DNA of 63,992 nt, counting the filler, from Circinaria calcarea (Eukaryota): NCBI GenBank assembly GCA_051942165.1. It is 5 parts of 5 records of this genome, joined end to end, with 100 filler letters (N's around TTAATTAATTAA, not from the genome) between each part and the next. Parts side by side here need not be neighbours in the genome. Positions count along the whole stretch, not along the records: positions 39,591 to 52,647 come from JAVECS010000527.1; 4 more parts are not named here. The stretch is one strand, 5' to 3'. A model generated the notes under the pieces. It ran no database searches, had not been told where the DNA came from, and worked only from the letters and a program-made list of their open reading frames with translations. Shown one piece after another: positions 34,301 to 55,228 of this stretch (its first letter is position 1; every line of letters starts with the position of its first letter). A program made the translations under genes and the position numbers.

Positions 34301-36487
34301 AGCCTCGTAGTATCAGGTGTATCGACTGAAAACTGGGACGACTCGCCTATACGCATATCGCTCGGATTTGGTACCTATGCTTCATTTATCTCGGCTGCTG
34401 GAGCTCAAATTGCTATTCTCGCCTCGTCGGGAAGCGTTTTCATCTACGATTCTTCGATTTTTGAAGAAGCGGCAGCCAGTCCAATCAAGCACGGCGAGCG
34501 TGTGTACAGGATGGCATTGAATAGCACTGGGACATTGCTTGCTACTTATGGCTACCGTACGACAATAATCTGGGAAATTTCCACCGGAAAACGCAAAATG
34601 TCGGTTGAAAATATCGAGTCACGACCTCGTCCACTTGCCATGCTCTTGACGAACAACAGTACTACGCTTCTTGTTGGCACCGAGGACAGGCGAATAAGAT
34701 CGCTCAACTTAAATCAATCACCGCCAGCCTGGCAGCTTGTGGCAGAGCTCGAAGAACCAGAGCTTGACGGACACTTTTTGAACTCGTCGAGTTATATGGC
34801 TCTGAATAATGATGGAAGTTTAATTGCTGTCGCCTATCGAGGCCATCCGCTTTCAGCATGGGAAACTGATGGACCAGTGCATATTGGTCATTGCTGGCGA
34901 AAACGAGAGGAAGTTGCCAGAGGCGAAGTGATCGAGGCTGTCTGGCATCCGTACTCTCCAGAAGTTCTGGGTCTTTATATTGAAGGGGTGGTTTTCAAAT
35001 GGCGCCCTTACGATGGTGAACTTGATGAAATTACCACGGGAGCATCTAGACTAGCCATCAGCGGAGATGGGAATCTCTTCGCTACCGGTGATGTACATGG
35101 GGTAGTGAAGGTCTACACCACATCTGACTTCTGTCTCCTATATCAGTTGGCATCTCAAGATACCGTTCTTGGCCTGGCATTCAGCCCTGATCTATGTCGC
35201 TTTTACGACATTAGAGGTTATTATGGGAATGCCTGGGAGCCGAATGCTTTGATGAGATTTGCAGAGCAGACAGGTAAAGGTATCAAGAGCGGTAGTGAGA
35301 CAGAAAGTCTTGCTCAAAGTTCCACGACATCCATAAGCTGGTCTCAGAGGATCGACTCAACCACAGTTCTTGCGGGCTCGCCTATCGGTCGTCTTTATTG
35401 CTGTGGTACAGAGAAAGGAACAGTGCGTTTACATGACACGCAGCGAGGGAAGCTTGCCGACCTTCACATGTCCAAAAGCTTTCTGAGCATCGAGCAAATG
35501 AGCTGGAGTAAAGATGGACGATATGTATGCTTCTCGGACTCGAGTAAAAAGGTCTTTATCATGTCAATAACTCCCAGTGCCGGTAACTCAGACCCAGTTG
35601 TGACAACGAAGGCTGAAATACCGATGAAGAACAGCATGAAAGGGCCCATTCTACAATTACTATTTCAAACCGATTCAAGCCATCTTTTGGTTTATACTTC
35701 CTCATCGATTCGCATTATTTCACTCACATCTTCTTCAGTGACATACTCGTTGGAATTGTATACGGCTGAGTGCAAGTGGATCCCACATCCTCATGACCCG
35801 GCTCTGGTCATAGGAGTTGGACCGAATGCCATCCACATACTGGATTGGAACTTAGCCGAACGCCAGACTTACAAAATCGAATATTCACTTCAGCTCAACA
35901 TGCCATCCAACCTGGAAAGCTCCTCGGACCAAGACACGGTCGATCGAGTCCTCGTCACCCACGACAAAAAGCATGTACTGGTTCAAATGTCGCTCCTAAA
36001 TCAAAAGTCAAAAGAAAAGACATTCCTTTATTTCGAAACGTCCTCATTCTCAACCTCCACAGCAACAACACCAGGCATCGACCAAAAAAGAGATCCAATA
36101 ACAATCACCCCAGTCATTCTCCCTCGGAACCTATCCTCCCAAATCGCCCTCTCCCTCTCTTTCCTCTCCCACGACCGCCTCATTTTCCTCTCCAGAACCT
36201 TTTCAATCTGCTCATGGCAACTTCCATCAGGTTTCGGTCCATCATTATCCTCTTCTCGTTCAATAACCCGTTCCAATAGCATGGCTACAACTACAACGAA
36301 TTCAACAACTTCCCTCAATCATCATCATAATAACGATACCAATTTACATAAGCAGCTGTTTTCGTTGCCGGGAGATTGGATTAGTAGAGATTGTTTGGCT
36401 TTATGCAGTATTTGGGGCATAGAGAGATCTTTGCTGTGTCCGAGGAATGGAGAGGTTGCTATTGTTAGGTGTGCGGCTTTGGTTTAA
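31316..36487 (+). CDS. Fungal NLR: SesB-like alpha/beta hydrolase - NACHT - winged helix - WD40
   Basis: ATG micro-exon 31316-31318. Hydrolase motifs DIVFIHGLGG, FVVHSMGGL, FLATPHRG, ADHHGVCK. NACHT Walker A GGAATGKS and Walker B WIIDGLDE, followed by FLWV, IHQTAREYL and C-terminal beta-propeller repeats. Intron 33368-33418 joins ORFs 32402 and 33443. Confidence 0.92.
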
Positions 36488-36649
36488 CTTTTATCTCTGT
36501 ATATTACTTCTGACAATCCATACTGACTTACAATGTTCGTTTCAAACGTTCATTGAAAATGATGAAGTGGCAGACGTAGGAATGCTTGAATCAGGCAAAA
36601 TTAATATTAGGAATGAAAACCAATACTATAAGAATCTTTATTGGTGTTA

Positions 36650-38317
36650 TCAAGCTGTACCTGATCTAGTCCCTTGATATGATGACGAGGCTATGCTCCT
36701 CTGTCTCCACGATGTCCCTTTATGATAATCAACGAGAAAGAGACCTATAGCAACTAAACACAGCCCGCCCATGAATGTAAATGTCCAACCAATACCCATT
36801 GCATCTATCATGTCCTCTAGGAATGATACTGCGATGGCCGCCAAAGTACAGCGCACTATGTTACTGGAAGCCTGAGCGGCTGCTGGTGTTCGATGATTTT
36901 TGTCCACTAGGAGGGTGTTGTAGATCTTGGAGTTATTCGATTAGGTTTCACGACTGGATGTATTTGGAGAAGACTTACGCTGAAATCGAGTTGCATGCAC
37001 AGTCCTGCGATAAATTGGAGACAGAGTGGAATGGCAACGTGCTGGGTTTATGTCAGCTTGAAAGCTGTTGAAGACGGATGAGAAGTGCCGACCTGGTGGT
37101 GGTGTAAGACCCAGCCGAAAGCCACAACTGAGCAAGTGGTTACGAGCATAGGTATCCATACGACACCCAGGCGCGCTTTTTCAATAGGGAAGTTGTCCAA
37201 GTCATCTCCCACCGCTTTGTCTGTTGAGAGACCTCGTTCTGTCCTGGCATTGCGGTATGCATTGTTTAGCAGCGGACCGGAGAAGAAAGTTGAGACTGTT
37301 CCACCAATACCAAAGGGAAGGTATACGAGACCTGCTTGCCACTGATTTAGCTTGTAGATATCGATGAACAGAATGGAGAGCGACGTATTGATGCATATGT
37401 AAATAACGTAGAGGATGCCGCAAGCGAGAATGATAATGGTATTATCCTTGCGGGTAAGTATCTTCAAGGATTTCAAGGGATTAGGCATCTACGACTTATA
37501 GCTTGCAACAACGTCGCTTTCCTTCCAGTGGCACATAAGTGTCGGAATTGGTAATCGTAAATGCTTTAATGGTCTGATCGATCCATTACCCACGATGTTC
37601 CGAGAAGTCTCGGGCAGGAGGAAGGCCATGATGGATAAGCATAATCCTGCAGCAATGCACAGAAACCAGAATATCCAGGTCCAACCTGCGGCGTAGGTCA
37701 GAACTCCTCCCAGTATGGGACCAATGCTTGGCGCAATCGTTACACTTATGAACCATAAGCCTAGAATTCTCCAGGTTTGGAATCCAAACCTACGCGAAAG
37801 ATACCGCACTAACGAAAGACCCTCTTTCTGCGGGAGATGCAACATCAGTAATCACCCCGTACGCAATTGAGAAGGTGCCTGAAGACATGAGCAAAAATCA
37901 AAGGTTTAGGACGGAAAGCATGCCAGAAATTGCCAAAGCTTGTAGTACTCGAAGGCCTAGAAGGGCTGAATATGACTTCGACAGGGCGATGGCGATATTG
38001 GCCCCTAGATATAGAACCAAAGTAATCACATATATTGGTCGTCGGCCCAGGACGTCAGCAGCGTCACCAACCAAAGTCGGCGCTACCGTCGCCATGGCCA
38101 TGTAGGAAGTAACGGTCAAGTTGATCTTGTCAACTGAGACAGACAACGTCTGGGACAGCAGGTGTATGGCAGGATAGTAAATGAAGCTGCTCAAAGTCGA
38201 GAACCAAGCGGCATAAGAAACCATGGCGACAATGCACCATTTCTCGGCTGTTGTGAAGACGGAGTATTTCTCGATTGCTTCGGCTCTCTGGCCGTCGCTA
38301 GCTTTTTGGCTGATCAT
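36650..38317 (-). pseudogene. MFS drug:H+ antiporter (DHA1/QDR-like) with an in-frame nonsense codon
   Basis: Motifs FSTLSSFIYYPAI, GDAADVLGRRP, GPILGG, LPETSRNIVGNGS, FPIEKARL, AAQASSNIVRC. TAG at 37489-37491 sits in frame between ...SYKS and MPNPLKS, with no intron evident. Confidence 0.75.
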
Positions 38318-38664
38318 TGTCCGAGAGTCGACATAGATAATTCAGCATAACTCAGACTTTTCTATTTTAAGTCCGGGGCGTTTGAGGCTCTTGCTAAGCG
38401 ACACGAGTAGACCCCGCGACTAGGAGATATCATCAATTATCGCGACAGACCTAAGGCGTCCCGGGGCAAAATGACTCCATCTAGGGGCTGCCCAACACCA
38501 TAACATAATGATTGTGGGTTTGAACCTAGATTGAGAACTTCAAACACGTCCTAATAATCTTCGCTAGGTCGCCAGCCATACAGTAAACATATCTCAATTA
38601 CAGGGTGGTTATCCCTCTTCCGTTAAGACGCCACAGCATGAGCCATTGCTTCCTTCTCCAGTCA

Positions 38665-39490
38665 CTAGATAGCTCGCTGAATCGGTCGTACTTTTATCTT
38701 CCCTCTAGCTAACCTCCACGCCCAGAGCGAGACCGTTGTTACCAAGTCAAGAAAATTAAATACCAGAGCCCCGCCAAATATTACTGCATAATACGTCCAC
38801 GCTGTCGTTTTCGGGATCTGGATCTTAGTCACGACGATCGCCCAAGGGAGAATCCAGAGGAAATTCGATGCAAGGGCTTGATAAAGATACCAGCGAGGGG
38901 ACGTCGCAAGTAAAATCGCAGCTAGTTGCTGATCTAGTCCATAGAAGATGTAGCACCAATCTATACTCTGTATGGTCATCAGATCATATATTGAAAGGGT
39001 ACAGGAATCCGGCACTGACTCTGAACATTGTCTCCGTGATCTCCGCCACTCGTGGAGATTGAGAGAGATAATACGCAAACGGCTGCATCCCCCGCGTCGA
39101 CAGACAAATGCACATGATCACTTCGAACAGTAGAGCGATAATCGAGGACACAAGCGCAGGTTGAACGATGCCTTTCCTAACTGTTAGGTTTCATTTGTTT
39201 TCAAGGGATTTTAGAAGTGCTTACCAAGTAGATCCGCTTTTGAGGCTTTGGGCCTTCGTATCTCAACACCCACGCGTGCTCTCCATTTACCCCAATTATG
39301 TCCGACAAAGGTAAGCGTAGATGCCTCTAGTGCTTGCACGGGAACCATTACCAGACCCCAACGTATGGTATTGAAGATTCCCCACGCAGTAGCATAGTCT
39401 TCGCCCATCAAGACTATCCTGCTTACAAGCCAAAGGTAGAGTGAATTGCGAATGGCGGACTCGGCGAAAGTATAGGTGCTTGGTCTCGCC
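38665..39490 (-). CDS. 3' partial MATE-like membrane transporter (truncated at contig end)
   Basis: [16 protein letters not shown]...[36 protein letters not shown], then IDWCYIFY...[18 protein letters not shown]. Spliced. Confidence 0.7.
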
Positions 39491-39590
39491 NNNNNNNNNN
39501 NNNNNNNNNNNNNNNNNNNNNNNNNNNNNNNNNNTTAATTAATTAANNNNNNNNNNNNNNNNNNNNNNNNNNNNNNNNNNNNNNNNNNNN
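39491..39590. other. Artificial contig spacer
   Basis: 44 N + TTAATTAATTAA + 44 N. Confidence 0.99.
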
Positions 39591-39993
39591 AGTGGGGAGT
39601 GGGGAGTGGGGAAAGTGGAAGGCGGGAAAGGGAGGAGAAGAGCAAGGGAGATGAGAAGGGAAAAGGGGCGGGGGTAAGGTAATGGGTAGGATTACCTTGT
39701 TAGGAGGATTGGCGGGAGGAATAGTACTACTGGAAATACCCAAAACTCAGGTCACCAATTAAAAAGTGCATTTTCACAACTCAACTTGCACGTTTATACT
39801 CCCATTGTTAGATTATGTCTGCCAAGATACCACCGCAACTTCATGCTGGCATTCTTTCTACCTACTATACGTTGCAGTATCGAATTCCATCACAGATAGT
39901 CCGCCGCCCTTGCCCTCCTACTCTTCCCACCGGCAGCGCCTCCAGCCTCCTAGCTAGGGCTTCTCCTTCTCCTCAAAGGCTCCGATGATTCTC

Positions 39994-40606
39994 TTACGCC
40001 CCATTCCCATCCCCATTCCTATTCGCATTCCCATCCCTCTCCTCCTTTCTCCCCACCATAAGAAATATAGGGGAGAAAATTCTCTCGCGGCCCCCGTCCA
40101 CTAAGCTCCGTGCCGTAATCTCTAACGTCTCCGCCGCTCGTATTGTTCCCCCCGGATATAACCTTAGGCCCTCGAGGCTCTTGAATAATTCGATTATAAT
40201 TATACGGCCTTACTTGGCCATGCGAAATAATATTAATATATTTTATTAATTTTATACGTCCCGTTACCGCCCCGCGAGTAGATATTACTAAATGACCCGG
40301 TCCCTTTTATTAGCGAGGTTATCGTGGCGGGTTAAAATAAAGTTGGTGGTGGGTATAACGGCCAGGGCCTCGAATTAGGTAACGAGGTAAAAAATGCTGT
40401 CGCCGAGCTCGATACGGTGCCGGATAGAGCGGTGGGTGGGGTTGAGGAGAGAATAAAAAAGGGTAAAGACCCACTCGTATACGGCGAAGAGGCCGCCGGG
40501 TTTTAAGACCCGGTGAATCTCCATATACGGCCGAGAGGGAGGGGGCGTGGAGAGTGGCTTCGATAGCGTAGATAGTATTAAAGAAGTTGGGGGGGGAAGG
40601 GATTTC
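39994..40606 (-). pseudogene. ERG6: Sterol 24-C-methyltransferase (ERG6-like) C-terminal exon relic, RIP-mutated
   Basis: Minus-strand translation after a CAG acceptor: [17 protein letters not shown]/[frameshift][18 protein letters not shown]...[14 protein letters not shown]...NLANKRDRVI**YLLAG...FRMAK*GR...SLVDGGRERIFSPIFLMVGRK. Many TAA/TAG codons fall at expected Trp/Gln positions. Confidence 0.88.
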
Positions 40607-41160
40607 CTGTAGAGAAAACCGCGAGAGAATTAGAATTAGGGCCTTTGTTTATTGTACATGATGAACGACGATGAATTGGGTTTAAGGGAAAGAGCCAAGT
40701 ATATCGTACCATAACGTCTCCCTTGATAAACTCCACCTGACTCTCCAGGCCAGCATCGTGGGTATGCTTCCTCGCGCGCTCGATCTAGGGATTAATACAA
40801 CTAGGTTAACAGTAAGCAAGTAGTACCTAAGCAACTATATACTATCGAGTCTTTTTCTAGCATTCAGAGCTCGCATAAGTTATCATATGCTCGCTAGCCA
40901 ATGAATTAATTATCTATTCGATACCACTCTTTTTTCTCATAGATCTATCTCAATACTAGTCGGCCATGATTATTGGAGATCACTAACGTAATCCTTGCAA
41001 CGTGATTGATTGAGTTTGATATAGCTATACATTGATCATTCCAACTGCTTCCAACTGCGCTATAAAGTTAGTACCCCGTTACCTACCCGACCCTTCCAGA
41101 AATACTCACGATTGAAACGTACTATCTTGTATATTCGATAGTGGTAGTATACAATATAGA

Positions 41161-41513
41161 CTAGTCCCTCAAGTCCTGAACGGAGAGTTTCTCAGCCTCA
41201 TACTCTTTTAGCTTTCGTACATGACTAGTAGTATCATCAACAGTTGGAGGTGCTTACTTTGGTAAGCGCTCTTGGTGCTGTGATCAGAGTGTCGGAGTCA
41301 TTGGTCTGGAGAAACAATATATGTCAGGTTTCTGGATAATGTTTACTTCTTCCCTTTTCTCCCCTTTTCCCCAAGCTCCCTTGAAGGTGCCTGCTTATTC
41401 GATAATGCCGAGCTACGTACCTTTATGGTATAATTATCTGGGAAAAGCCGCTCCAAAAGTTCGAAAAGCTTTTCCAATACTAGATATTGGTTCTTGATGA
41501 TCGTTTCCGCCAT
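41161..41513 (-). CDS. Unannotated ~60-aa alpha/beta microprotein, 3 exons, divergent from the kinase-TPR gene
   Basis: Exon 41513-41421 MAETIIKNQYLVLEKLFELLERLFPDNYTIK, donor GTACGT, branch CTGAC and CAG acceptor; exon 41305-41258 TNDSDTLITAPRALTK, donor GTAAGC; last exon ...AEKLSVQDLRD* (TAG 41163-41161, acceptor ambiguous). Absent from the ORF track. Confidence 0.72.
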
Positions 41514-42040
41514 TTTCTATTTGTTGGCGTGTTGTAGGTCAATTATGATAGATACCTCCCAGAAATCGCTCAAGAATAGAAGAGGGCGACTCAGAAACTT
41601 AGGCTTTTATACTACTGATGAGTGGTTACTTGATTTGTATACTGATAAACATACAGCTCAGGCTAGCTGGGCAACGAATCGCATGTGCTGTAAGCTTCCT
41701 ATATCAGCCGAGTAGGTATACAGCTAATGGTCCCGTGAATAACTTTGCGCCACGTGTTATATGACTTCTTCGCGTGTGGCACCACTGAAGCTTCCTAACA
41801 GGTTATTCAAAACAGGTCTGTCTTAACCTCTTCGATGATTGGATGGAAGAAACGCAGGTGTTGGGCGTAAAGATAAGGTCTTACACGGTCCGAATCGAGC
41901 TAGCCTTGATGTTGTGTAACACCCTATCGGAGTATATATACATACCCAGACTTCGGGACACAGGACGCAAAATCAAGCCATCTACGACCAGTTGATTAGC
42001 TTAACTGTCTTGTCTAATCTTACGAGACTAGCGCTCTAGT

Positions 42041-45000
42041 ATGTTTTCTACACGCGACGATTCATTTTTCACCCGTCCTGCCATCTCACCCAAGGAGGTA
42101 AAGAATAAACTGCAAAGTGATTTGATCCAATTCCTTGCGGCTGTAAAAAGGAATCGCATCGATTTCCTACCTATCATGTGGCAGCCTGCGCTGGGTAACC
42201 TTGGTCGGGGAGCCTCAGCACAGGTGAGTCAGTCTGTTATCGACATCACATCTGGATTTGCATTTAAGCGCTTCTCTAACTCAGAAGATGCTGACTTATA
42301 TTCACCAATGATAAACGAGGTTTCAATACTGAGTCTAGCCCCGATCCAAAGCCATCGTAACATCGTCAACCTCGAAGGGATCTGTTGGGAAGTAAGGAAA
42401 ACGCCAAAGGAAACTGACTTTGAGGTATTCCCCGTGCTGGTGTATGAGAAAGCGGCGTGCGATCTGGTGCATTTCATGAATACAGACGATGGAAAAAACA
42501 TATCAGTTGGCGATCGACTCAGAATATGTACAGAAATAGGACATGCTATTATGACTTTACACTCTGTAGGTATGTTACTCAATCCCGTCACTTAATCCTG
42601 CTCCTTCCTTTCAAGATATTGTCTAAAAAAGATATAGATGTGATCCATGGTGATCTAAAGCCACAGAATGTATTAGTGTTCAGGACTGCTACAGGCGGCA
42701 TAACAACAAAGGTCACTGATTTCGGATATTCCGCACTTTGGCAAAGCTCGACACAAAGCGTTTATCTACCAAAGTCAAGGCCATGGAATGCTCCTGAGCT
42801 TGATTCCCGGAACAACTTCACGCTCTCTGAAGCTAAGAAGATAGACGCTTACTCCTTTGGCATGCTTTGTTTCTGGCTTTTGGTTGGGCACAGCATCTTG
42901 GATACCCCGATTGATATTGAGGGCCAGCTTGAGTCTGTTTCGTTCGACCTACCATCTGTTCGCGGTCAGCTGTCGTTGCTCGAAGAGCTGAAGCACAGAG
43001 ACAAAATGGAGGAGGTTGCTTATCAACTGGCCCGAAAAACATCAAGCTTGGAAGCCGAGTATGAATCTCGTCTGAAACCTCTCTTTGGCCTAACAATTAC
43101 TGGTAATATTAAAAGAAGGACCTCCGATTTCGGCGAACTAATTGTGCTTTTTGATCAAGAACGGTGAGCGCAAAGCATGATCCCACACTTTTGAATTACA
43201 AATTTGCGCTGACAATATTAGAATATGTCCTCAGCAATGGACAGTGCAACAGTTCGACGATGGGGATTTTCGCGTAATAAATAAACCTCTCCTATACGCA
43301 TATAAAGCACTTGGCTTACTTCTGATTAAGCTTGCCGACAACCTCGTGGACTTGATGAAATGTGATTACCGTGTACGGAAACATATTACGAGCTGCCTCC
43401 ATCTTAGATTTTCCTTAGCCAGCACCGAGTCATCCGCTGAAAGCATAGCCTTCCAACTTGCATTCTGCTATCAAATTGGATTTGGAGTTAGAGCAGATGC
43501 AACCCAGCTGCGGCTTTGGCTAGAAAAGACCAAGAAGGAGGTAATGGATCTTGAGATCGAAAGAGACGCCGTGCGTTCATCCCCCTATCGAAATGAGAGG
43601 ATGCACAAGCTTTATGGCGAGGATCTCCTCAGTAGAATTGATCTTATCCATGAATATCGAGCTTGGGGAACGAAAGGTCTGGAGGAGGCTCTAAGAGAGT
43701 ATCGGCTTGAAGTCGGTAGTATGTCACGAGTTTTTGGAGAAACTCATGTCATATCAATATCCCTGTATGAAATCATTGGTGATCTACAAGACGAGTTAGG
43801 TTACTTCGACGAATCGAAGGCACTACGAATGCGAATCAGGGATCTTCTAGTCAAGATACATGGTATTGATCATCTAAGATGCCTTCAATGGTCACTCGAA
43901 GTAGTCAAGGTACACATTAATTGCGAGGAGTTTGAAGAAGCACAAGCTTTACAGGAGAATTTTCTAAGACGCATGGGTGAGATTGATGATGGAAGAGGTC
44001 TGGCGCTATCAGGTATCAAAAAAAATCTTGCGATTATCCTTTTAAGGCAAGAAAAGTATGAGCAGGCTGAGAAATTGAGTACACAAGTCGTGGAGACCAG
44101 TTCGAAATTACTAGGGCTAGAGCACTCTGACACAGTGACCAGCTTAGGTGTGCTAGCAGCATGCTATAGAGGTCTAAAGCAGTGGAAGAATGCAGAACGA
44201 TTGCAAGTACAAATTGCAGAAACAAGAAAGAAAACACTAGGTGCGGACCATCCTTTGACTGTGCTTGCACTGCGACTTTTAGGTAAAATATATTTTGAGC
44301 AGGCACAATGGAAGCAGGCAGAGGAATTACAAACCCATGTTTTCAAAACAAGTGTACAGGTCTTGGGGGCTGAAAATCCAGATACGTTAATGGCTATGGC
44401 TGATCTAGCATTCAATTACAAAGCGCAAGATCGGTGGAGGGAAGCAGAAGGACTATATTTAGATCTCTTAGAAATAAGGCGAAGAATACTAGGAGCAGAA
44501 CACACCGCTACGATGGAGTGTATGGCGATTTTGGCAGCAATATACAGGGAGCAAGAACAGTGGAGAAAGGCAGAGGGATTCGCAATACAGATTATCAAAC
44601 AAATGGAGAAAATCTATGGAGTAGATCATCCCTGGACAATGGAGGAAACGTCCAAACTAGCCTCAGGCTTCCGGAACCAGAAGCAAACAAAGAAAGCCGA
44701 AGAACTTCAGCTGAAAGTATTGGAGAGAAGAAGAAGGGTACTAGGGCCAGAAGATCCAGACACACTGCGCAGTATGACTGAGCTAACCCTGACATATATG
44801 AACTTAGAGAATTGGGGAAAAGCCCTGGAACTAGGGAAATTAGTAGTAGGTGCCAGCATCAGTAAATTAGGGGAGGGCCATCCTGATACGCTAATCAATA
44901 TCTCTAATTTGGCGGGAGTATACTGGAACCAGGGACGTTTACAAGAGGCAGAAGAATTGGATATCCACGTCATTGATACACAGACAAAGGTCTTGGGAGC

Positions 45001-45664
45001 GGATCATCCCGATACGCTGGATAGTATAAATGCGTTGGCTGCCACATTCTGGAGCCAAAAGCGCTGGAAAGAGGCCGAGAAGCTGACAAAGCAGATCATA
45101 GAGATAAGGAGCAGAACACAAGGAGAGGACCATCGTGACACCCTGGCCAGCATGGCGACTCTAGCATCCATGTATCAGGAGCAGATGCGCTGGAAAGAGG
45201 CTCAGATGCTGAGAACACAAGTAATGGAGACTAGAAAAAGAGTACTTGGAACAGACCATCCGGAAACACTGGAGAGTATGTCCATAGTGGCTATGACAAA
45301 CTACTGGCTTGGACGGCACCCTACGCAAGATCAGGCCGCCGGTCAGAAAGAGGCCGAGGAGTTGCAATTGCGGGTCTTGAATACGAGACAACGAGAGCTG
45401 GGACCAGAGCATCCAGATGCACTCGCCAGTATGGTCAACGTGGCGTGGACACTTCGAGATCAGAAAAGGGACATGGAGGCTGAAGAACTTGAAGCGAAGA
45501 TGAACGAGTTGCAAGTACGGTCTATCACAGGGAACATGCCAGATACTGAGCGGCCATGCCCAACGTCTATCGCAATTCTCTGGAAAGCCAAAGGTCGAGC
45601 GCGGCCAGCGGAGCAATATGTAGAGCAGGAGTCAGGTGACGAGTCGACTAAGGTGGAAAATTGA
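42041..45664 (+). CDS. Protein kinase fused to kinesin-light-chain-type TPR array (~1150 aa), no NOD domain
   Basis: Exons 42041-42569, 42638-43163 and 43222-45664 (possible extra in-frame intron 43274-43330). Intact kinase motifs LGRGASAQV, FAFKR, INE, HGDLKPQN, TDFG, WNAPE, DAYSFG. Linker AFQLAFCYQIGFG, then TPRs. Confidence 0.9.
44111..45500 (+). repeat. 42-aa (126-nt) TPR repeat array
   Basis: LGxxHPDT-like motif starts at 44111, 44237, 44363, 44489, 44615, 44741, 44867, 44993, 45119 and 45245 (exact 126-nt period), plus 45398 after a 9-aa insertion. Two or three degenerate units lie upstream. Confidence 0.92.
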
Positions 45665-45861
45665 TCTGCATGCAGTTGTCGGGCAGAATATTCTTGATTA
45701 TTGGCAATGCGGATGCATGGACGCCTTACTTTTAGGCTACAGTAGGCAACTCTTGGCAGTGCGACATATATATGCTCTGAATCCTGCAAGGCTTCATCGA
45801 AAAACCTATATAATGTCTTCGAGTAAGTTTATCATAATTCGTCGTGTTTTCTGACAACCTG

Positions 45862-47830
45862 ATGAGTTCCGTGGGCTGGGTATAAATATGTTTTCACATT
45901 GGCCGACTTCAGTAGTATAGCTAACCGTGTCGAATTTTGTAGGAGCACCGCATGTCCGGATGGCAGAAGTACCCTGCGACCTTTCCTCCTTCTATCACTG
46001 GAGGGTACGATGTATGCGACCTCCAGGAGCGATTGGAGCAGGAAAGTACTTTACTCTTTACCGACGAACTAGCCAAGATTAGATTAGAGGTCCTGATTCC
46101 GGCAGACGGTAAGATTACACAGTGAAAGAGACCAAGTCCAGGAGAGTTTGAAACTGGTACAGCGAACTTACCGTCCTGATAATTCATGGACAGATGAGCT
46201 TGTGCTTATCTCTAGGAATGAGGATCTGGAACGCTTTCTAGAGGTAAGCGATCCGCTATAAGTCGAGACAAAAGCATAGTACGACTGACTTAATACCCAC
46301 AGAAAATGATGGATAGTGGGATGACTAAGTTCTTGTAAGTAGCTATAAGAATGCTCCTCAGTGCCGCTCAGACTGAGAGCCCCTTCTATGCAGCTTCATT
46401 TGCCAGCGTAATTCATGGACACGCCTTAAGATTTCATACGGCATGTTTCAGATGCTCTGTCACTTCTATCAAGTCTTTCCTAAGTATCTGGAGTCTGTAT
46501 TCAAATTTGGCGCTAAAACATCCAGCGCCGAGGAGTACCTTGGGGCAGGGTCTTTTTGTTGCATGCGTGAAAGCGATGTACTTGGATCCAGTGGGAACAA
46601 GTCCGCAACCTTTGGTATAGTACCTGAAGCTGTTCAGGCTACTTTCTTTTATTCACAATTCGCAGAAATCAGTTACACTATAGGCCACGCAGAAAAGCAT
46701 GGTAGAGCATTGAAAGACCCTTGGTCGTGTCGGCAGTTCGCCATCTATCAGAAGTATTACTGCCAGAAAAATTCCTCCGTGTGGATTCTCATTCAGGTTT
46801 CGAGCCGTATTAGAGCCCACTTGGAAAGAACGTTTAGCCAAAGCAGCGAGATAAACAGCTTGGCTCCGTATGATCACCCTATCGGCCAACATATTTCTAT
46901 CTTGCATTCTTCTGAGAGGAACTGGAGCACTTACATTGGCTACTTGGGGAGCGAATTGTCTTCGATGGTAAGGCTGCCCTATCCGGGTCTCGAGAACTTT
47001 CCGGGTATTAAAAGACAGGTGCTATATACTAACTATAGTGCAAAGAATCAGATCATATCGTTCCCTAGAGGTTTAAGCGAGTATGATGTGAATTTATCCC
47101 ACAGCCAAAAACTGATACACATACGCCGGAAGTTAGAGAATGCGTTATCAATACTTCGTGCAAATCTCGACGTTGCTTTACTTTTGTCAAATCAAGCTAA
47201 AGACGTGTACAAACGTACCAAGGTCTCCTCAGATAGTAAGGACCATTTCCGATCAGAAGTACAGCAATACAAATCAGTAATGATTTGCCACATCCGCAAT
47301 ATTGAACGACATCTAAAGTTTTCAGAAGATATCCGTCTCTTGGTAAAAACAGACATTCTCATTGCAAGCTACTCGGATTACTTATGCTATATAGATTCTT
47401 AAAATTATGGGATTCCAAAACGACGAACTTCTTTTTAAGAACAGCGTCTCGCTGAAAGAGATAGCCGACGAAACCTCGTCCGAAAATAAAGCCATGGTGT
47501 CAATGACAGGTCAGTTTGTGGTAGACTCGCGGACCACAAAGCTTGCCACCTTGATAGCCACAGTTTATCTGCCAGCAAGTCTGTTAACCGTCAGTTTCCC
47601 TCCATATTTTGGCTTCTGTATGACTAAGCTCATATCCATTGTGAAAACAATAGTCGTTCTTTAGTACCAGTTTGATTCAGTTCAACCCAGGGAACGGTGG
47701 TGCTATTAACGTGACGATAAGAAAAGAGATCTGGATACTTTTCGTTTTAGCTCTACCTCTTATGGTACTTACGGGAGCTTATGTGCACTTCGTAGGACAG
47801 AGACAGAAGAGACCTAGATCGTTCTCCTGA
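45862..47830 (+). CDS. Fungal CorA-like protein with two C-terminal TM helices (~480 aa, 8-9 exons)
   Basis: Reconstructed exons (45862-45879?), 45943-46108, 46194-46243, 46303-46334, 46394-46614, 46666-46967, 47046-47342, 47395-47589, 47654-47830; alternative start ATG 45952. Motifs FICQRNSWTRLKIS, VFKFG, EISY..EKHGR...PWSCRQFAIYQKY, NWSTYI, a long helical stalk, then DSRTTKLATLIATVYLPASLLTSFFST...IWILFVLALPL. Confidence 0.82.
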
Positions 47831-48056
47831 CCTTTATACTGAAAGGGTATGAAAACCTTTATCTTGTCTCCGGGTAGCGTTGCAAAAAAGATGATCTTAG
47901 GACTGAAGGTTATGCGGGGAGCGTAATGCCTATATCATATGAACGGAGCTTCTTTTGGCAAGCCGCCACGATTCGGAAACTTTGTTTTCTAATGAATTAA
48001 TTACTTTCATGACATCGTCGTGCACTTTATTCACGTAGCATAGACAGACTGCAACA

Positions 48057-51035
48057 CTATATTCGTAGTCTAGTCAACTCCCCAAGAGGGCCCACAACTT
48101 TATCGTAGAATGTCCCTAGTATGCTCTGCCCTTCCATCACGGTAGAGTGAGGTCGATTCTCTTGATTAAAATCAGCCTGCAGGCATGCTAAAGTAGCATT
48201 TGTGTAGACCAGACCCATGGTGTGATTTAGCCGTGGTGCGTATTTATCAATGAGTACTTTTCGAAACGCCGAAGGGTTTAGCTCGAGTTCTCTGTTGTTT
48301 TGAAGGAATGTGTGCAAGATATTCCAGCTTCCAAGCTCTAGAAGAATTATTCCGAGACTGTAATAGTCGAAAACTTCTTGGAAGGTGTTGTTGCCAGAAG
48401 AATAATCCGGGTGTTGGTAATGCTGTAAGCTGTCCTTACTTCCTGTGTCTAGGCGTTCGGATTCATTTACGTTCTCCGAAGACCGTGAGGGGCGAAGATT
48501 GATCAGGTAGGGGCGTTCGAGTAGAGACGAGAGAGCCGGTGTACGTCCCCCCTCTTTGAAGAAAACTACGTTCTTCGAGTTCAGGTTTTTGTGTAACCAT
48601 CCTGCCATATGCAGTTCCCGTATACAGCTGACTAGCTTATACGCTAAGCGATACTTATCCCCCAACGGGAAATCGAATTTAGACCAAGACTTGAGAATGT
48701 CCCACAGATCTATTGGGACCGTTCTCTTATGCCACTCTGGCCTCCCTGGAAGATTACCGCGAGGAAAGGTATAAATCAAGCAATGATCATGCAGTCCACG
48801 ACCTCGCATATCTGATATTTCCACAAAGCCGAGACACTCCAAGATTCTAAAGCCTTCAGGCCAAGACTTTCCATGGAAAAATTTAGCCCTCACCTGCATG
48901 AATTGGTATTTTTGGGTTGTTGACAACTCCATCCACCGACGTGTGAGCGGAACCGACTCAATGAATACCTGCGTATCATCGTACAGGCCAATCTGGACTC
49001 CCTCACCAAAGTCCCGTTCGGTGTGAAGTTTCTCTAATGACAGAAGCAAACCTGCCTCGTGGAACACATGAGCCTCTGACAAATGTCTTTCATTTTCTTC
49101 CAAGCGTAAATTCTCCACTTTTGCTACCGCAAATGCACCCAATTCCGAATAAGCGTCGGATTGGGGGCTAAGGCTAGTATTGTGAAGTACATCATCAATT
49201 TTACCTTCCGTATTTAGCGATTCTTCCAGCCAAACTTGCCTGAGCTTTTCCTGGTAAAGTATGGGGACTGCCATCCAGAGCTGTTCGACCAGTTCCTGAA
49301 TTTCGTCGTGGAAGGATTTCCGAATCGAGAAGATGACTGCCGACTTGGAGGATGGCTCGGTTTGACGCTCTTTGTCATCTGAGTTGAGTAACTCAAGTAA
49401 TTTGATAAGGATTCTATTGAAATATTGAGGCTCATGACCGACAGGTAAAATGCAATCAGCCAAAGATCTGCCTTCGATCAGCTGCAAGACTTTGGCCCAA
49501 GCCATAAGGCGGCCGTATTCATTTTGAATGGCTCGAATCTCCAGTCGTTTATCATTTTCATGTTGGGCGAGTTCAAGGTATTTGTCAAAAGATTGTTGCG
49601 CAGCCTCTATTAGAGCCTTCAAGCTAAGAAATGAGAGCTGCCGATAGACCTCAGCTGCTTTGGGCCGACCAATAGGATCTATCCTAAGCATGAGAGCTGC
49701 TTGGTCCAGTAAGTCACGGAATACCGCACTGTCTGCTTGGGCAACTGACTCCTCACACCAATCAACGACAGACTTCCTGAGACTGGTTCCCGAAAAAAAC
49801 CAATGGTCTGTGATTTGTGGCTTGTGGGCACTCCCATAACGCCGATTATGGAAACTAATCACACTCTTTGGCCCACCTCTGATGTAAGCTGCGATTTCTA
49901 AGATCATACAGCCAAATGACCATATATCTAATGGACGTCCTACTTCTTGCCGCATCAAACTTGAATTCATACATTCCGGCGCAACATAATCTCCCAGACC
50001 AGCTTTCCAGTTTGTTCCAGACACTTCCTCCGACGGCTTCATCCTGGCAAGCCCAAAGTCTGCCAAATAAAACGTTTTAGAATCAACAAGGACATTAGCT
50101 GGCCGAATATCGTGATGATATCCTATTCGTTGAAGCTCCACATCATGATCTTTTGTATTAAGGTTAAGTGAGTGAATCACTGCAATTGCTGAAGAAAGAC
50201 CTTGCAGAGCGGTGTAGAACATATAGTCATTCGTGAACCCCCCAGAAAACTTCTGGAGCTGTAGAAATTGTTTCAGATCAGTTGGAAAGTGTGGGAAAAG
50301 AAAGTAATGATGATCAAGATGAGTATACGAGCCTAAAAGCTGTATGATGTTTGGGTGCTGGAAACGATTTAGAATTTGGAGACACTGCTTTTCTCGTTCT
50401 AAAAAGTCTCCATCGAGTTTCTTTATTCTCTTTTTGACAATGAAGACTTCATCTCTCTAGACGTCATTAGTCACATTTAATGGAAGATAAGCGTGTCCTC
50501 AGCCACATACCGGTTCGGAATAAATGGTCTGCAAAGAAGGAGAGACAGATATCTTGAAAACATCACCGAATCCTCCCTCGCCCAGCCATTGTTCGTGGAC
50601 AAACGGCAATATCTCCTCATCACGAAACTTACAATGGTAACCACTCATATCTTTTGTCAATATCCTGGGCAAGAATTCCCATTGTACGTTCCGAGCAAGC
50701 TCCCACCCTAAGGTTTTGGTAGCAACCTTCTCGGCCGTTTCTATATCGAGGGGCAATTGCTCGTCTAGGACGTTATTTTCAATAAATCTTATCAGCTCAT
50801 GATGCCATTTTTTCCATACGAGAATTCCGAATATAATTTTACCCTCGTTGAAAACGAGATTAACGATATTAGGCTTCTGGTATTCGGGAATAGGGCACTC
50901 ATGAATGACTCCCTTGATAATATCTCTTGTAAGTAGAGTCTTCACTTCGTGAGGGTCAATAAAGTAGCGTTTATCGGTGGACTCTCTGCGCAGTTTCCCA
51001 ATTTCGCCTCGTAAGATTTCTATCATGGGTCCCAT
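48057..51035 (-). CDS. Tandem kinase: N-terminal helical domain - active kinase - HeLo-like domain - pseudokinase (~974 aa)
   Basis: ATG 51035; intron 50510-50457 (GTATGT..CTAAT..TAG) joins ORFs 50499 and 48057 in frame. Kinase 1: GEGGFG, IVKK, EREK, HHDIRPAN, DFG, APE, DIWSFG. Middle: IQNEYGRLMAWAKVLQL (HeLo-like ExxRLxxW). Kinase-like domain 2: VFIE, FRILECLGF, LHKNLNSKNVVFF, PYLINL, YQHPDY, DYYSLGIILLELG. Confidence 0.9.
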
Positions 51036-51131
51036 TGTAATAGGTAGTTGGGAGAATTTGAGGTTGAAAGGCACATAGGGTCGCCCTTGGAAGATAGCCT
51101 TTGCTAAGGTTTTCGAAGATCACTGTAAAAA

Positions 51132-51333
51132 CCCTTTACGAACAGTCAAGAGATCTTACGAATAAGGGTCGGTAGACTATGTGATAATATGCTGCGAGGG
51201 TTCGCGGGTTGGGTCAATAGATAAATTATTGCTAAGAATTTATTGTGCGAGGCTTCGCGAGAAAAGAGAAAACTCTGCTAGCGTTTAATACCCCATGACC
51301 TCGGTATATAGTTCACCCGTAGGGTTCGTAGGG
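51132..51333. promoter_or_regulatory. Cluster of TTCGYRRG-like motifs upstream of the tandem kinase gene
   Basis: GCGAGGGTTCGCGGG (51194), GCGAGGCTTCGCGAG (51247), CGTAGGGTTCGTAGG (51318), and inverted copies TTTACGAA/CTTACGAA (~51135, ~51155). Confidence 0.3.
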
Positions 51334-51499
51334 GGTCCTCTGATGGAGGCCCTTACACAGGGGCAGGAAAATTTTGCATTACAGGCATAATTTCACGTAT
51401 TCCCCACATGTATCTTAGTTTTTTCAGTAATAGCAATAATGAATACCGATTCGCATTATATATTCAACAAAACTACAGTAGAGTCTATCTCCATGCGCT

Positions 51500-52276
51500 A
51501 TTACGTTCAACAGGTTTAGGAGGTTAAAGGATTGGCATTCTCCCATTTACTACGGCTATTAGCAGAAGTAGAAGGAGCATGACCTGAGTAGGGGGTGAGT
51601 ACTCTCGATCGTAGCCAGAAGGAAACGGTGTGGTCAGTCCTAACCGTACTTGTAATATGGAGACCCAATCGCATGGCTGGGTCGAATGGTGTTGCCTTGT
51701 ATGCGTATGGGCTTTGGTGAGATTGCGCTTGAGAAATCTCAATATTGAAGTACATCTTATCCTCTCACAAAGCTGGTAAGCTGCTTGGCAATGAAAGACA
51801 GAAAAACCCAAGAAAGAAACAATACCGAGTAGTAAACTCTCTAGGGCGGGTCTGATAATAGTAGGATTTGACTTCCTTAGGCGCTCCCAGTAAAGCTACC
51901 TGTAGAGCCTTGGCTTTCCTTGCTGGCAGTTTCTGCTTCCGTTTTACGTCATAGTAATAAAGTCGATAGCTGGGGTTGGAAGAAGAGCGAAGGTTGAGAA
52001 ATCGTTCCCGAGTAGGTTTGTGATAATCTTTGATGTGTAGCTCGTATAGAGAAAACTCAAGAGAGCCTTCAGAGCCTGAATTGGAGGGAGAACCATAGCG
52101 AAGAAGGTAATTCCGTATCCATGCCAAACGTTCATTGATCTCTTCTCTGGAGATGTTTGCCACAAGAGAAGCACGATGTTGAGCCCAAAATGTGTAAGAC
52201 GCAGCTCCATCTCTTCAGGAAGGTACTTTCGAAGGTCTCTATCGTCGAGAGTTTGGCAAACCAGGCAAGCTAACAT
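51500..52276 (-). pseudogene. Possible degenerate N-terminal part of a HET-domain gene
   Basis: MLACLVCQTLD start and a second CxxC (SCFSCGK) in a shifted frame. In-frame TGA at 51767-51765 between ORFs 51765..52163 and 51516..51755, then ...TVSFWLRS...GH and a frameshifted PK/LLNV resembling the PxRLLdV entry to HET domains. Confidence 0.3.
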
Positions 52277-52647
52277 CTTAATGATGTTAAGAAGACTACA
52301 CTGGTATTCGCCTTTGGCTGGGGATTTGATGTTAAGATGACGAATTTAGAGTCGATATTTTTGAATTCCATAGAGTGACAATGCAGATTAGGGCATTTAC
52401 TGTGGACTGTTGAGCTGGGCTAATCGATGTGGGAGCTGCATACCCTGTATTTGAATTGCAACGAACTAATTGAACCATGTTGCCTTCTAGACAACAGACA
52501 TGATTGACGAACCTGCACATGATTAAGAAGACTCTTTTCAAATGACCGGTCACTAGAATCCCAAGGTGAGCACCACCAAAGAAGGAGCCGATGTGCGACG
52601 GATCAAAAACCTCCGCCACCGTATACGCAATCCACGTCATCCCAGAT

Positions 52648-52747
52648 NNNNNNNNNNNNNNNNNNNNNNNNNNNNNNNNNNNNNNNNNNNNTTAATTAAT
52701 TAANNNNNNNNNNNNNNNNNNNNNNNNNNNNNNNNNNNNNNNNNNNN
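52648..52747. other. Artificial contig spacer
   Basis: 44 N + TTAATTAATTAA + 44 N. Confidence 0.99.
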
Positions 52748-52864
52748 TATGGAGAAGATCAAGAATGGCCATGCTGTGGAATGGTTTCGATGCCGGACAA
52801 TGTCACGTTGGAGAAGTCAGTTGAAAAGTTGCTGGAAGCAACGGGGGTAAGGCCCATTGCATAG
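52748..52864 (+). CDS. Possible 3' end of a gene truncated by the contig start
   Basis: Open frame YGEDQEWPCCGMVSMPDNVTLEKSVEKLLEATGVRPIA* from the contig edge. Family not recognised. Confidence 0.3.
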   Translation, partial: YGEDQEWPCCGMVSMPDNVTLEKSVEKLLEATGVRPIA

Positions 52865-53893
52865 AGATTTGCAAAACAGGATAAGCAACTAGACCAGCTC
52901 ACGGTTCGACGCAATCGGCCTTTGGATGTAACTACGTTCTGGTATAAGTTGCAACGGTGCTCCGAGTCTTAGCCTGCTGTCATCTCACGCTGCTCGGATC
53001 TGCCTGTTTGTAGAAACCTGCCGAGTTTGCGACTGGCGCATCTCGTAAGGGTCCAGATGCAGGATGATATGGGCGATTCCCAGCGGTCGATGTAAGGTGC
53101 TTCGTAATAACTGCCTCAAGCATCGTGAATGTAACCTGGAAGAGTGTCGAGCGTCGAGCGTCGAAACAAAAGCAATAGCCGATTAGCCGCGTCCTGCGGA
53201 GCGATGAGGTAGGTAGGATAGCCAAACACAAAAGGAAGGAAATCAAGGGCTAAGCTATGGCGTGGTATGATCGTTTTCTTTCCTTTATCAAGATCGAAGA
53301 ATGGGTATTTGACTAATGACCCCGGAACCGGCCGTTTGTAGTGCAGAAAAGCGGTGATGAGATTGGTGAGATCAGCTTCCCTCCCGTCACATCGGCTCTA
53401 CTCAATCACGGCATGTTTCAGGCCGTGCAGGACCAAAAATGGAGTACCTACGCAAAGGAAAGCCGCCTGAAATCTTCAAGATTTTGTGAATGTCAACTCC
53501 TTGCGATGGTACTGCACCCCTACGAGAGCGAGCCCTAAGCTAACGATCCTGGGGCATGAACCTTCTGCCGGTCGTAGCTCCCTCCTGTACCATAACTCCC
53601 GAGGTGGAGAATGCTGTAAATCTCAATCAAAAACTACAGCGTCTTAAATTTGGAGGTATGCACGAGTTGTGTTGTAGGAGAAAGGTTTCACATCTGTGTA
53701 TGCGAACTTCTCTATAATAATACAACTTGGTCCCGGTATTAAGTATCCGATTGCCAAATCTATAAACCAAAGCTCGAACTTTTCCACTGATGCCCACTGA
53801 CTTCCTCTATACTTCAATCCAGCTTTGCAACGATCCCTCTATTGTTTTCCCTAGTACTTTATGCCAGCACGAATCATTCCGCAACATCTTCAA

Positions 53894-55228
53894 TTAACCC
53901 CATGTGGCCATACCTTGCGAATACGGATAGCTAGCACCCGGAAAGAAGCTCTGGGCAAGGTTGACAGTGCCTCTTCCCTGACTGATGTCATAAACGTTGA
54001 GCCCGGTGCGGTTAGTTGGGAAATTGGCGCTCAAGCTATAGACAAAATCCCCACTGACTTGGAGGTCGGTTTGGCCGAAATTGCCGTTCGCCGAAATATT
54101 TACTACCGTGACAATCTCCCCTGAGTCGACGTCCATTTCGATCAGGTTGTTAACCGCGCCATCGGTGAAAAACGCTGTCTCGGTAAGCTCGGAGTAGCCA
54201 GCCCAACAGGTAAATACGGTCGTAGGAAAGACCGTGCGTATCTTGGTGGTGGCAGTAAGGGTGTCCTCGTCGTACGTAATCACTCCACCGCCGTAAGAGG
54301 CATCTGCGAGGACAATGTCCTTCGTACCCGGGATGATGGCGGCTCCGAACATGACCCCAGCACCCTCGGGTGTGGTCCTCACCACGTCATATAAAACCGC
54401 ATCGCGGTTCACTCGGAAAGCGGCCAAGAAACCAAAACTTCCCAGCTCAGGAACGACTGTGACAGGAAGGCCCAGCTGGTTGTCTCTCGGCTGTCCTTTC
54501 ACGTCGGCGAAGAGAATGTTCTCCTCTTCACTGAAAAACACGGTCGAGATTCCGTTGTACGCATTAAAGGGCGGTGTGGTATTGTTAAGACCGAAATCGC
54601 GTCGAGCGTCAAAAGGCTTGAGGCCAGTACGAGTGGAATATGACGCACATGAAATGCCGGACTGTACCCCGTTTTGGCCCACGCATGCGAGCCGGCGTCT
54701 TCGTGAAATACCCACGGTTGTAGGGAAATCGCCGCGGGTATTCATGGGGGTTCCAAGCATGGTCAACTTGGTTGGATCCCTGTTGTCAATGGTAAACATG
54801 GTGAGGGTATTCGAGCCAGGATTGACGACAAATAGATTCTAGTTTCACGGTTGTCAGTTCTGGTCACTGAGGTTGGAGGTACCAACATCTCTTCTGGTGG
54901 CGGAAACTGAAGATTAACTCACCCTGCCAACAACCTTTACAGACCCCGCGCTGGCCAGCGCGTCTACGGCGGCAGGTTCGGTACCGGTGAATGGATCGAT
55001 AGTCGCACCACCGAGCCCGCCAGTGGGTGTGACCGTCATTCCGTTTTTGCGGAGCTGCCCGTTACGCCCGACAGGTACAGCAACAACCGAGTTGGGTTGA
55101 TTGGGATCGTTGGTCATGAAGTAAAGCACTTGGGGCGCGTTGAGCCTTCGAGAAGTAAGAGGTGTTGCATTAACGACTACCGAGAAGGCAAGTATTGCCG
55201 CAAGGATAGATCGAGATAGGAGAGACAT
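53894..55228 (-). CDS. Secreted lactonase-like beta-propeller (3-carboxymuconate cyclase-like, gp60/70 type), 2 exons
   Basis: Signal peptide MSLLSRSILAAILAFSVVVNA; YFMTND..NSVVAVPV...G.L, TPTGGLG, DALASAGSV, intron 54922-54839, LFVVNPGSNTLTMFTI...DPTKL, GDFP, TCW. TATA upstream near 55360. Confidence 0.85.

Follow-up and report, generated by a model that had tools for sequence, protein, structure and literature searches.

Two kinds of death or immune pathway are known in fungi, one in which NOD-like receptors (NLRs, built around a nucleotide-binding and oligomerization domain, NOD) signal to HeLo-type proteins through amyloids, and one that consists of clustered protease and gasdermin genes, as far as the available text of PMC12881547 describes them. 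The same text gives NWD2/HET-S and PNT1/HELLP/SBP as two- and three-gene clusters of the Pezizomycotina in which a repeat-bearing sensor is encoded with a HeLo-type protein, and gasdermin-protease clusters as cases where an enzyme fused to TPR, ankyrin (ANK) or WD40 repeats is encoded beside the membrane effector. It adds that clusters of two or three genes are a frequent form of fungal death pathway and that some fungal HeLo-like domains occur in kinase or pseudokinase proteins; CorA goes unmentioned in it. The accessible portions of PMC10197012 and PMC9815663 mention kinases only as effector domains of NLRs, and CorA never. Here we describe a group of four genes in a 63,992-nucleotide stretch of DNA from Circinaria calcarea (assembly GCA_051942165.1), referred to in full as the window. 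They encode a 63-residue small protein (mic), a kinase with a C-terminal TPR array (G2), a CorA-like protein with two transmembrane (TM) helices (G3), and a protein that joins a kinase, a helical bundle and a pseudokinase (G4). The four very probably form one conserved functional module, kept together over much of the Pezizomycotina.

The window is made of five parts joined end to end. Positions 39,591–52,647, where the four genes lie, come from record JAVECS010000527.1, and parts that stand side by side need not be neighbours in the genome.

Linkage of the four genes in other genomes

The alignment of G4 served as the anchor for a scan of metagenome contigs, with 10 kb of flank taken on each side. 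The scan gave 65 loci, which dereplication by G4 DNA identity reduced to 45, and 29 of these were at least 8 kb long. The loci were mapped by tblastn with the four window proteins, and mic by an iterated profile of its first exon. Within 10 kb of G4, a G2-type gene encoding a kinase with TPRs was found in 20 of the 29 loci and one encoding a kinase with ankyrin repeats in two (L012-14 and L018), giving 22/29 loci with a kinase-plus-repeat gene of either form; at one further locus (L037) the G2-type gene is interrupted by the contig end. The CorA-like G3 is present in 21/29 loci and mic in 19/29, with four additional weak matches that have the same motif and position. G2, G3 and G4 occur together in 16 loci (18 if the ankyrin forms are counted), and all four genes in 10 (13 if the weak mic matches are counted). 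Grouped at 50% G4 protein identity, the 29 loci fall into 18 groups, and in 16 of these one or more members have a G2-type gene together with G3 and G4.

Background family density was represented by an internal control, in which all open reading frames (ORFs) of at least 70 aa from the 29 loci and the window were clustered. Outside the four genes and their shadows in other frames, no ORF family occurs in more than 4 of these 30 loci. The genes are found in at least 11 different orders and orientations, the commonest core being G3 on one strand, diverging from mic and then G4 on the other; the window's own order was seen again only in L051. Between lineages that retain all members, G4 identity is 28–35%, and linkage that outlasts such divergence and reshuffling is characteristic of a functional cluster. 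Its recurrence in other loci shows that the grouping is above chance. This is in line with the original prediction that the four genes make up one module, since homologues lie within 10 kb of one another at highly diverged loci and in numerous orders, the opposite of an absence of linkage beyond chance.

Named species add to this. In Sphaerosporella brunnea (KAA8903438/39) and in Trichophaea hybrida (KAF8526172/73) the accessions of the G4 and G3 homologues follow one another directly, and in Wilcoxina mikolae they are five apart; within each of the three species both lie on a contig of equal size. Proteins of annotated genomes usually receive sequentially numbered accessions, and for this reason the numbers point to adjacency of G3 and G4 in named Pyronemataceae.

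Is the cluster inherited as a unit? Trees of G4, G3 and the G2 kinase were built by a quick method with only Shimodaira–Hasegawa-like approximate likelihood ratio (SH-aLRT) support, that of G3 without L051 and L065, whose G3 fragments are shorter than 140 aa. Of the five starred sister pairs of the G4 tree, three are found again in the G3 tree, where one more is unresolved and one is out of reach, and three in the G2-kinase tree. The cluster thus appears to be inherited mostly, not strictly, as a unit.

Several observations count against the reading of the four genes as a closely co-evolving set. The G2-kinase tree breaks two of the five starred pairs, and pairwise identities are weakly correlated for all combinations (Spearman 0.21 for G4 and G3, 118 pairs; 0.04 for G4 and the G2 kinase, 144 pairs; 0.20 for G3 and the G2 kinase, 113 pairs). 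G4 stands alone in L001/2 despite 9–10 kb of flank on both sides, and only mic accompanies it in L008/9. G2, mic and G4 occur without G3 in L005/10, L006, L022/24/25 and L052-54; G3, mic and G4 occur without G2 in L003/4/7 and L015-17. The loci are moreover metagenomic, so that several may share one genome, and each was assigned to a taxon by its best named match alone. Several Pyronemataceae-like paralogues are without G3 or without G2, and G4 is fragmentary in L042 and L046. The G4 matches of L052-L054 and L042 come in two to four pieces, which may reflect extra introns or decayed copies.

In the trees, the G2 kinases of L039 and L065 are sisters (support 93) within a starred clade of four rows, and their G4 proteins fall in different major clades. 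This discordance hints at exchange of the sensor gene, G2, between clusters, which may possibly have happened at times.

The four genes and their products

Gene models were derived by three-frame reading of the window DNA across each candidate intron (Table 1). In these models the reading frames of mic, G2, G3 and G4 are all open and every intron runs from GT to AG, so the four genes are intact and lie where they had been placed at first sight. The sequence has the short introns of a fungus, and the named proteins closest to it are those of the Pyronemataceae. The intergenic gaps, 527 bp between the divergent mic and G2, 287 bp between the tandem G2 and G3, and 226 bp between the convergent G3 and G4, reproduce the spacings reported earlier (about 530, about 200–290 and 226 bp).

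Table 1. Features of the four-gene locus, in window coordinates
Feature	Position	Strand	Size or content	Basis
mic, small protein gene	41161..41513; exons 41513-41421, 41305-41258, 41211-41161	-	63 aa	splice model
G2, kinase-linker-TPR	42041..45664; exons 42041-42569, 42638-43163, 43222-45664	+	1165 aa	splice model, Pfam
G2 kinase	42041-43163	+		Pkinase E 5.6e-13
G2 linker	43222-43966	+	248 residues	
G2 TPR array	43967-45661	+	11 stretches	TPR_10 E 3e-89
G3, CorA-like two-TM protein	45952..47830	+	493 aa; seven exons	splice model, homologues
G3 exons	45952-46108, 46194-46243, 46303-46334, 46394-46967, 47046-47342, 47395-47589, 47654-47830	+		
G4, N-domain + kinase + helical bundle + pseudokinase	48057..51035; exons 51035-50511, 50456-48057	-	974 aa	splice model, Pfam
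G4 exon 1	50511..51035	-	N-terminal domain (~130 aa) and kinase start (glycine loop)	conserved in 24 aligned sequences
G4 kinase 1	49647..50456	-	catalytic residues intact	Pkinase E 6.3e-24
G4 helical bundle, HeLo-like (moderate confidence)	49047..49661	-	exon-2 residues 266-470	AlphaFold2
G4 pseudokinase, DUF7580 (PF24476)	48060..49046	-		E 2.3e-9
Sterol_MT_C isolated fragment	39997-40209	-		E 1.2e-15

G4 has 123 homologues of about 950–990 aa with the same layout of Pkinase and DUF7580, found in the Pezizomycetes, Sordariomycetes, Dothideomycetes, Eurotiomycetes, Lecanoromycetes and Leotiomycetes. Identity is highest to proteins of the Pyronemataceae (47–50%), apart from one unnamed protein at 95%. 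Its first exon has no Pfam match, and the nearest Atlas clusters to the N-terminal domain are unnamed Ascomycota proteins only. The first kinase, for which the Pkinase match is above the Pfam cut-off, has the same catalytic residues (beta-3 Lys, alpha-C Glu, HxD Asp, Asn, DFG Asp and APE) in 16/16 aligned homologues and is predicted to be active; its matches in the PDB are generic kinases. The C-terminal domain is a pseudokinase: the HRD Asp is replaced in 15/16 homologues and both the DFG and the beta-3 Lys are missing. Its PDB matches are weak and to kinases only (LIMK1, E 0.0056).

Between the two lies an all-helical bundle, modelled by AlphaFold2 with a predicted local distance difference test (pLDDT) score of 83. 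Exhaustive comparison by VIA-align placed HET-S (2wvo_A) third, with the longest alignment (146 aa, 16% identity) and a Z of 8.8, and MLKL at Z 7.1 (4btf) and 6.9 (6ux8), plant CC domains and MLKL being within the top 30 (Z 6.9–9.2); values of Z below about 13 are common for helical bundles. Among the matches listed by Foldseek, HET-s (2wvq_B) has the best probability (0.84) and the best query TM-score (0.41), at an E of 0.6. The Pfam family HeLo (PF14479) is matched below threshold by 11/29 homologous segments (best E 7.8e-4), and is the only family matched by more than two of the 29. A less favourable picture comes from the other searches. Foldseek found no match to the bundle at E ≤0.001, the window's own segment does not match HeLo at E up to 1, precomputed annotation lists PF14479 in 0/120 of the G4 homologues listed, and a profile search of PDB sequences with the bundle gave seven matches, neither HET-s nor MLKL among them. 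The bundle is also internal, following some 440 residues of N-terminal domain and kinase, so that release of a free N-terminal helix in the manner of HET-S or MLKL is not obviously possible. Of the kinase, HeLo-like domain and pseudokinase first proposed for G4, the kinase, a helical bundle and the pseudokinase are thus borne out; the HeLo identity of the bundle, to which the sub-threshold matches (11/29) and the Z of 8.8 point, is weakly supported. We hold with moderate confidence that the bundle is HeLo-like.

The G3 exons of the window have no Pfam match, CorA included, and the CorA-like character of the protein comes from its homologues. The version with intron 4 spliced agrees with the homologue alignment, and 14 of the 14 close homologues carry the precomputed label PF26616, "CorA-like transporter domain", a model that our own Pfam scans never listed. 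A profile of eight homologues retrieves 2959 cluster representatives at E ≤1e-3. The fold was examined on one homologue, P0124 of T. hybrida, rather than on the window's spliced protein; P0124 adjoins a G4 homologue and is 40% identical to the window G3 ORF. Its AlphaFold2 model (pLDDT 85) has a cytosolic alpha/beta domain, a long stalk helix and two C-terminal TM helices, as in CorA, and in Foldseek every top match is to T. maritima CorA (E 3.9e-9, probability 1.00, some 450 columns, 9–12% identity). The family to which G3 belongs therefore has the CorA fold, in agreement with the two-TM, CorA-like protein originally described. Against a role as an ordinary CorA are two findings. In the TM region of P0124 the match to CorA (PF01544) is below threshold (E 1.2e-4, 21.9 bits against a cut-off of 27), and the GMN motif at the end of TM1 is absent from the window G3 and the aligned homologues, which have Ser/Thr-rich residues instead. 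The GMN motif defines the Mg2+-conducting CorA/Mrs2/Alr1 proteins. G3 is therefore not a canonical CorA and need not conduct ions.

In G2, Pfam recognises Pkinase, above its cut-off, followed by 10–11 stretches of TPR_10/TPR_12. The translated kinase has its glycine loop, beta-3 Lys, H-G-D, DFG and APE all present and is likely to be active. Pfam finds neither NACHT nor NB-ARC in the protein, and the 248-residue linker between kinase and repeats is without an ATPase match; as expected from the first description, then, the only families found in G2 are Pkinase and TPR, and a NOD ATPase is not among them. A search with the linker gave four matches, all of them metagenome fragments and none from a named species. 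At two loci ankyrin repeats replace the TPRs at the same position (L014 764-5172 (-) and L018 1103-4864 (+)). Homogenisation of the repeats was considered and rejected, since Tandem Repeats Finder (TRF) detects no 126-bp tandem array and the off-diagonal DNA identity of the array in relatives is about 70–76%. Descent of the G2 kinase as a paralogue of the G4 kinases was likewise rejected, the similarity being that of kinases in general (28% over 90 aa). In L010 (20685-22337 (+)) and L005 (20778-21883 (+)) there is another G2-like kinase gene, some 8 kb downstream of G4.

The small protein has no Pfam match in the window scan, and its first exon has no usable match in the Atlas. In the matches to the exon-1 profile, an ATG stands 5–10 codons before a conserved amphipathic helix motif, which is followed by a short strand, and in every copy seen the frame then meets a GT at an identical place. 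The second exon ends in a conserved Ala/Val-Pro-Arg-x-Leu-Thr directly before the next GT and keeps an Arg three residues before a Thr/Ser, and the third holds an acidic Glu-Ile-x-Ser-Val motif and then the stop. The motifs of exons 2 and 3 can still be made out in the most distant loci. Conservation of both intron positions and of the stop marks mic as a real gene of about 55–65 codons, as had been supposed, and the profile of its first exon finds it in 19/29 loci. Its usual place is 0.5–1.8 kb upstream of G4 on the same strand; elsewhere it is divergent from G2, which is the case in the window, from G3 or from G4. The helix motif of its first exon (41421-41513 (-)) can be aligned to residues 23–37 of the G4 N-terminal domain (50925-50969 (-)), with which it shares an Arg-aromatic-aliphatic start and the spacing of Leu. 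Homology of mic to that domain was rejected, the match found by hhalign being a short motif with a probability of 4% and probably due to chance, as was homology to G3 (hhalign probability 0.1%).

The surroundings of the block had been described as decayed sequence. On one side, a relic of ERG6 fits the isolated C-terminal fragment of a sterol methyltransferase (Table 1), the remainder of which is unrecognisable in the neighbouring ORFs. On the other side the proposed HET relic was not recovered, as HET is matched by no ORF among the 28 that reach 45 aa in 51050-53900. Pieces of an MFS transporter lie in three separate ORFs at 37051-38341 (-), either split by introns or decayed. About 5 kb from the cluster, in the coordinates of the joined window, is an NLR-like gene (32381-36484 (+)). 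It consists of two abutting ORFs, 32381-33415 and 33419-36484, with a stop or an intron between them, which encode NPHP3_N/NACHT (E 3.8e-45) and then a winged helix and WD40 repeats. The G+C fraction (GC) is 0.41–0.48 over 36000-53000 (0.495 in one 1-kb bin), compared with about 0.50–0.54 in most of the remaining window, and the four-gene cluster thus sits in a compositionally distinct, lower-GC stretch.

A putative signalling cassette and its alternatives

How might the four proteins work together? The best explanation, to which we give an even chance, is that they would constitute a signalling cassette that has no NOD, is driven by phosphorylation and is of the type that serves regulated cell death or immunity in fungi. 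G2 would be the sensor, an intact kinase bearing a repeat domain that forms a superstructure (TPR here, ankyrin in two lineages, an interchange also reported for fungal NLRs) and that may sense a ligand or a perturbed host protein. G2 would then phosphorylate G4, or G4 might phosphorylate itself. G4 would act as the transducer, its intact kinase being joined to an MLKL-like unit of bundle and pseudokinase, as if an upstream kinase had been fused to its pseudokinase target, and this unit would switch state. The most likely membrane effector or anchor is G3, which is CorA-shaped, has two TM helices and lacks GMN; it would execute the response or hold it at the membrane. The small protein could be a regulator, acting as a brake, or a substrate. 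Basophilic kinases favour an Arg three residues before Thr/Ser, and the Arg placed in this way before the conserved Thr of mic fits the latter role. We infer the order of events, their trigger and their outcome, be it death or ion flux.

Taken together, these roles can be drawn into a fuller scenario, which is more tentative and which we rate as somewhat improbable in all its parts. The cluster would be an ancient and undescribed immune or death system of fungi, in which kinases take the place of the NOD ATPase of NLRs. A sensor kinase with TPR or ankyrin repeats would activate a fused "RIPK-plus-MLKL", and the latter, with a GMN-less channel of the CorA type, would kill or depolarise the cell. 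The 63-aa protein would be an obligatory partner, whether as brake, substrate or guarded decoy, and the system would exist in multiple divergent copies per genome in several classes of the Pezizomycotina.

Could the module serve ordinary signalling or ion homeostasis instead? Two kinases and a small regulator would in that case gate or traffic a cation transporter of the CorA type when the TPR or ankyrin repeats bind a cue in the cytosol. Linkage would be equally strong under such an arrangement, the G3 family has the entire CorA fold, and with an internal bundle whose HeLo identity is weak there is no proven killer in the cluster. On the other hand, G3 is without the GMN of the Mg2+-conducting proteins, and the many highly divergent paralogous and partial copies would be unusual for a housekeeping pathway. 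The swap between TPR and ankyrin and the pairing of kinase with pseudokinase are also closer to immune receptors than to homeostatic regulators, and on balance a homeostatic role seems unlikely to us. Genes would likewise be held together in a selfish or conflict element, for example a toxin-antidote pair, a driver of meiosis or a haplotype for allorecognition, since killer and protector have to be co-inherited, and the small protein would then be the antidote. The tight linkage despite rearrangement would fit, as would the numerous divergent and partial copies, the lower-GC stretch (0.41–0.48 over 36–53 kb) beside a gene fragment, and the NACHT-WD40 gene 5 kb away in joined-window coordinates. 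However, the gene set is old and widespread, with 28–35% G4 identity between lineages that retain all members, which fits a long-lived cellular system better than a driver, and a selfish origin is accordingly regarded as quite improbable.

The remaining alternative is that common families have come to be neighbours by chance, or for purely historical reasons, and have no joint function. The families are large (at E up to 1e-3, G3 has 2959 representatives, and G4 has 123 matches), and G4 is alone in some loci, such as L001/2. Yet both a G2-type gene and G3 are retained within 10 kb in 16/18 deep lineages of G4, the number of orders being 11 or more, no unrelated family occurs in more than 4/30 loci, and a gene for 63 aa travels along. 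A chance neighbourhood is thus strongly disfavoured, and we consider it extremely improbable.

If the cassette reading is true, the cluster would represent a third kind of fungal death or immune cluster, one that combines kinases with an MLKL-like unit, a CorA-shaped protein and a conserved microprotein. It raises the question whether signalling from kinase to pseudokinase, as in necroptosis, also occurs beyond animals and plants, and whether a sensor with a repeat domain can do without a NOD module. A further question is the role of the thousands of GMN-less CorA-like proteins in fungi. The cluster is in addition a clear case of a conserved microprotein whose genomic partner is fixed.

Comparison with known systems

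The architecture of G4 is already known in outline, to the extent that the available text of PMC12881547 covers it. The set of genes was not found described in the literature searched, which excluded subscription journals and bioRxiv supplements, and within the same scope nothing was found on DUF7580, or on CorA-like proteins together with HeLo in fungi. It is the four-gene cassette, with its CorA-like and microprotein members and its NOD-less sensor kinase, that appears to be undescribed in this literature.

Among fungal systems, the HeLo and HELL clusters are alike in having a repeat-bearing sensor beside a HeLo-type protein. Their sensors, however, are NOD-bearing NLRs that act by amyloid templating, whereas G2 is a kinase without a NOD, and the HeLo-like domain of G4 is not N-terminal and matches its family only below threshold. 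The gasdermin-protease clusters also have a repeat-fused enzyme next to a membrane protein, and G2 shares their interchange of TPR and ANK; the enzyme here is a kinase and not a protease, and the membrane protein is CorA-like and not a gasdermin. Fungal NLRs, as signal transduction ATPases with numerous domains (STAND), resemble G2 in their C-terminal repeat array, with TPR and ankyrin interchangeable between relatives, but G2 is without their central NACHT or NB-ARC ATPase.

For G3 the nearest relative in structure is T. maritima CorA, with which the homologue P0124 has its whole-chain fold in common (an alpha/beta N-domain, and a stalk helix leading into TM1 and TM2). In contrast to that protein, the G3 family is GMN-less, is only 9–12% identical, falls below the Pfam cut-off for CorA and has an N-domain that precomputed annotation assigns to a fungal family, PF26616. 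Some type III CRISPR systems of bacteria have effectors of the CorA type.

Tandem kinase-pseudokinase resistance proteins and MLKLs of plants are associated with immunity. The former resemble G4 in having a kinase and a pseudokinase in one protein, a likeness for which no homology is claimed, and to our knowledge they have no CorA-like or small-protein partner. Closest in layout is the RIPK3-MLKL pair of animal necroptosis, in which an active kinase acts with a protein made of a bundle and a pseudokinase, the C-terminal half of G4 having an MLKL-like layout. The kinase of G4 is not specifically RIPK-like, its PDB matches being generic, and no RHIM or amyloid motif was noticed in the cluster, where none was searched for. 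Unlike RIPK3 and MLKL, which are two proteins, G4 has the active kinase and the bundle with its pseudokinase in one polypeptide, with the bundle internal, and to these the cluster adds a CorA-like protein and a protein of 63 aa.

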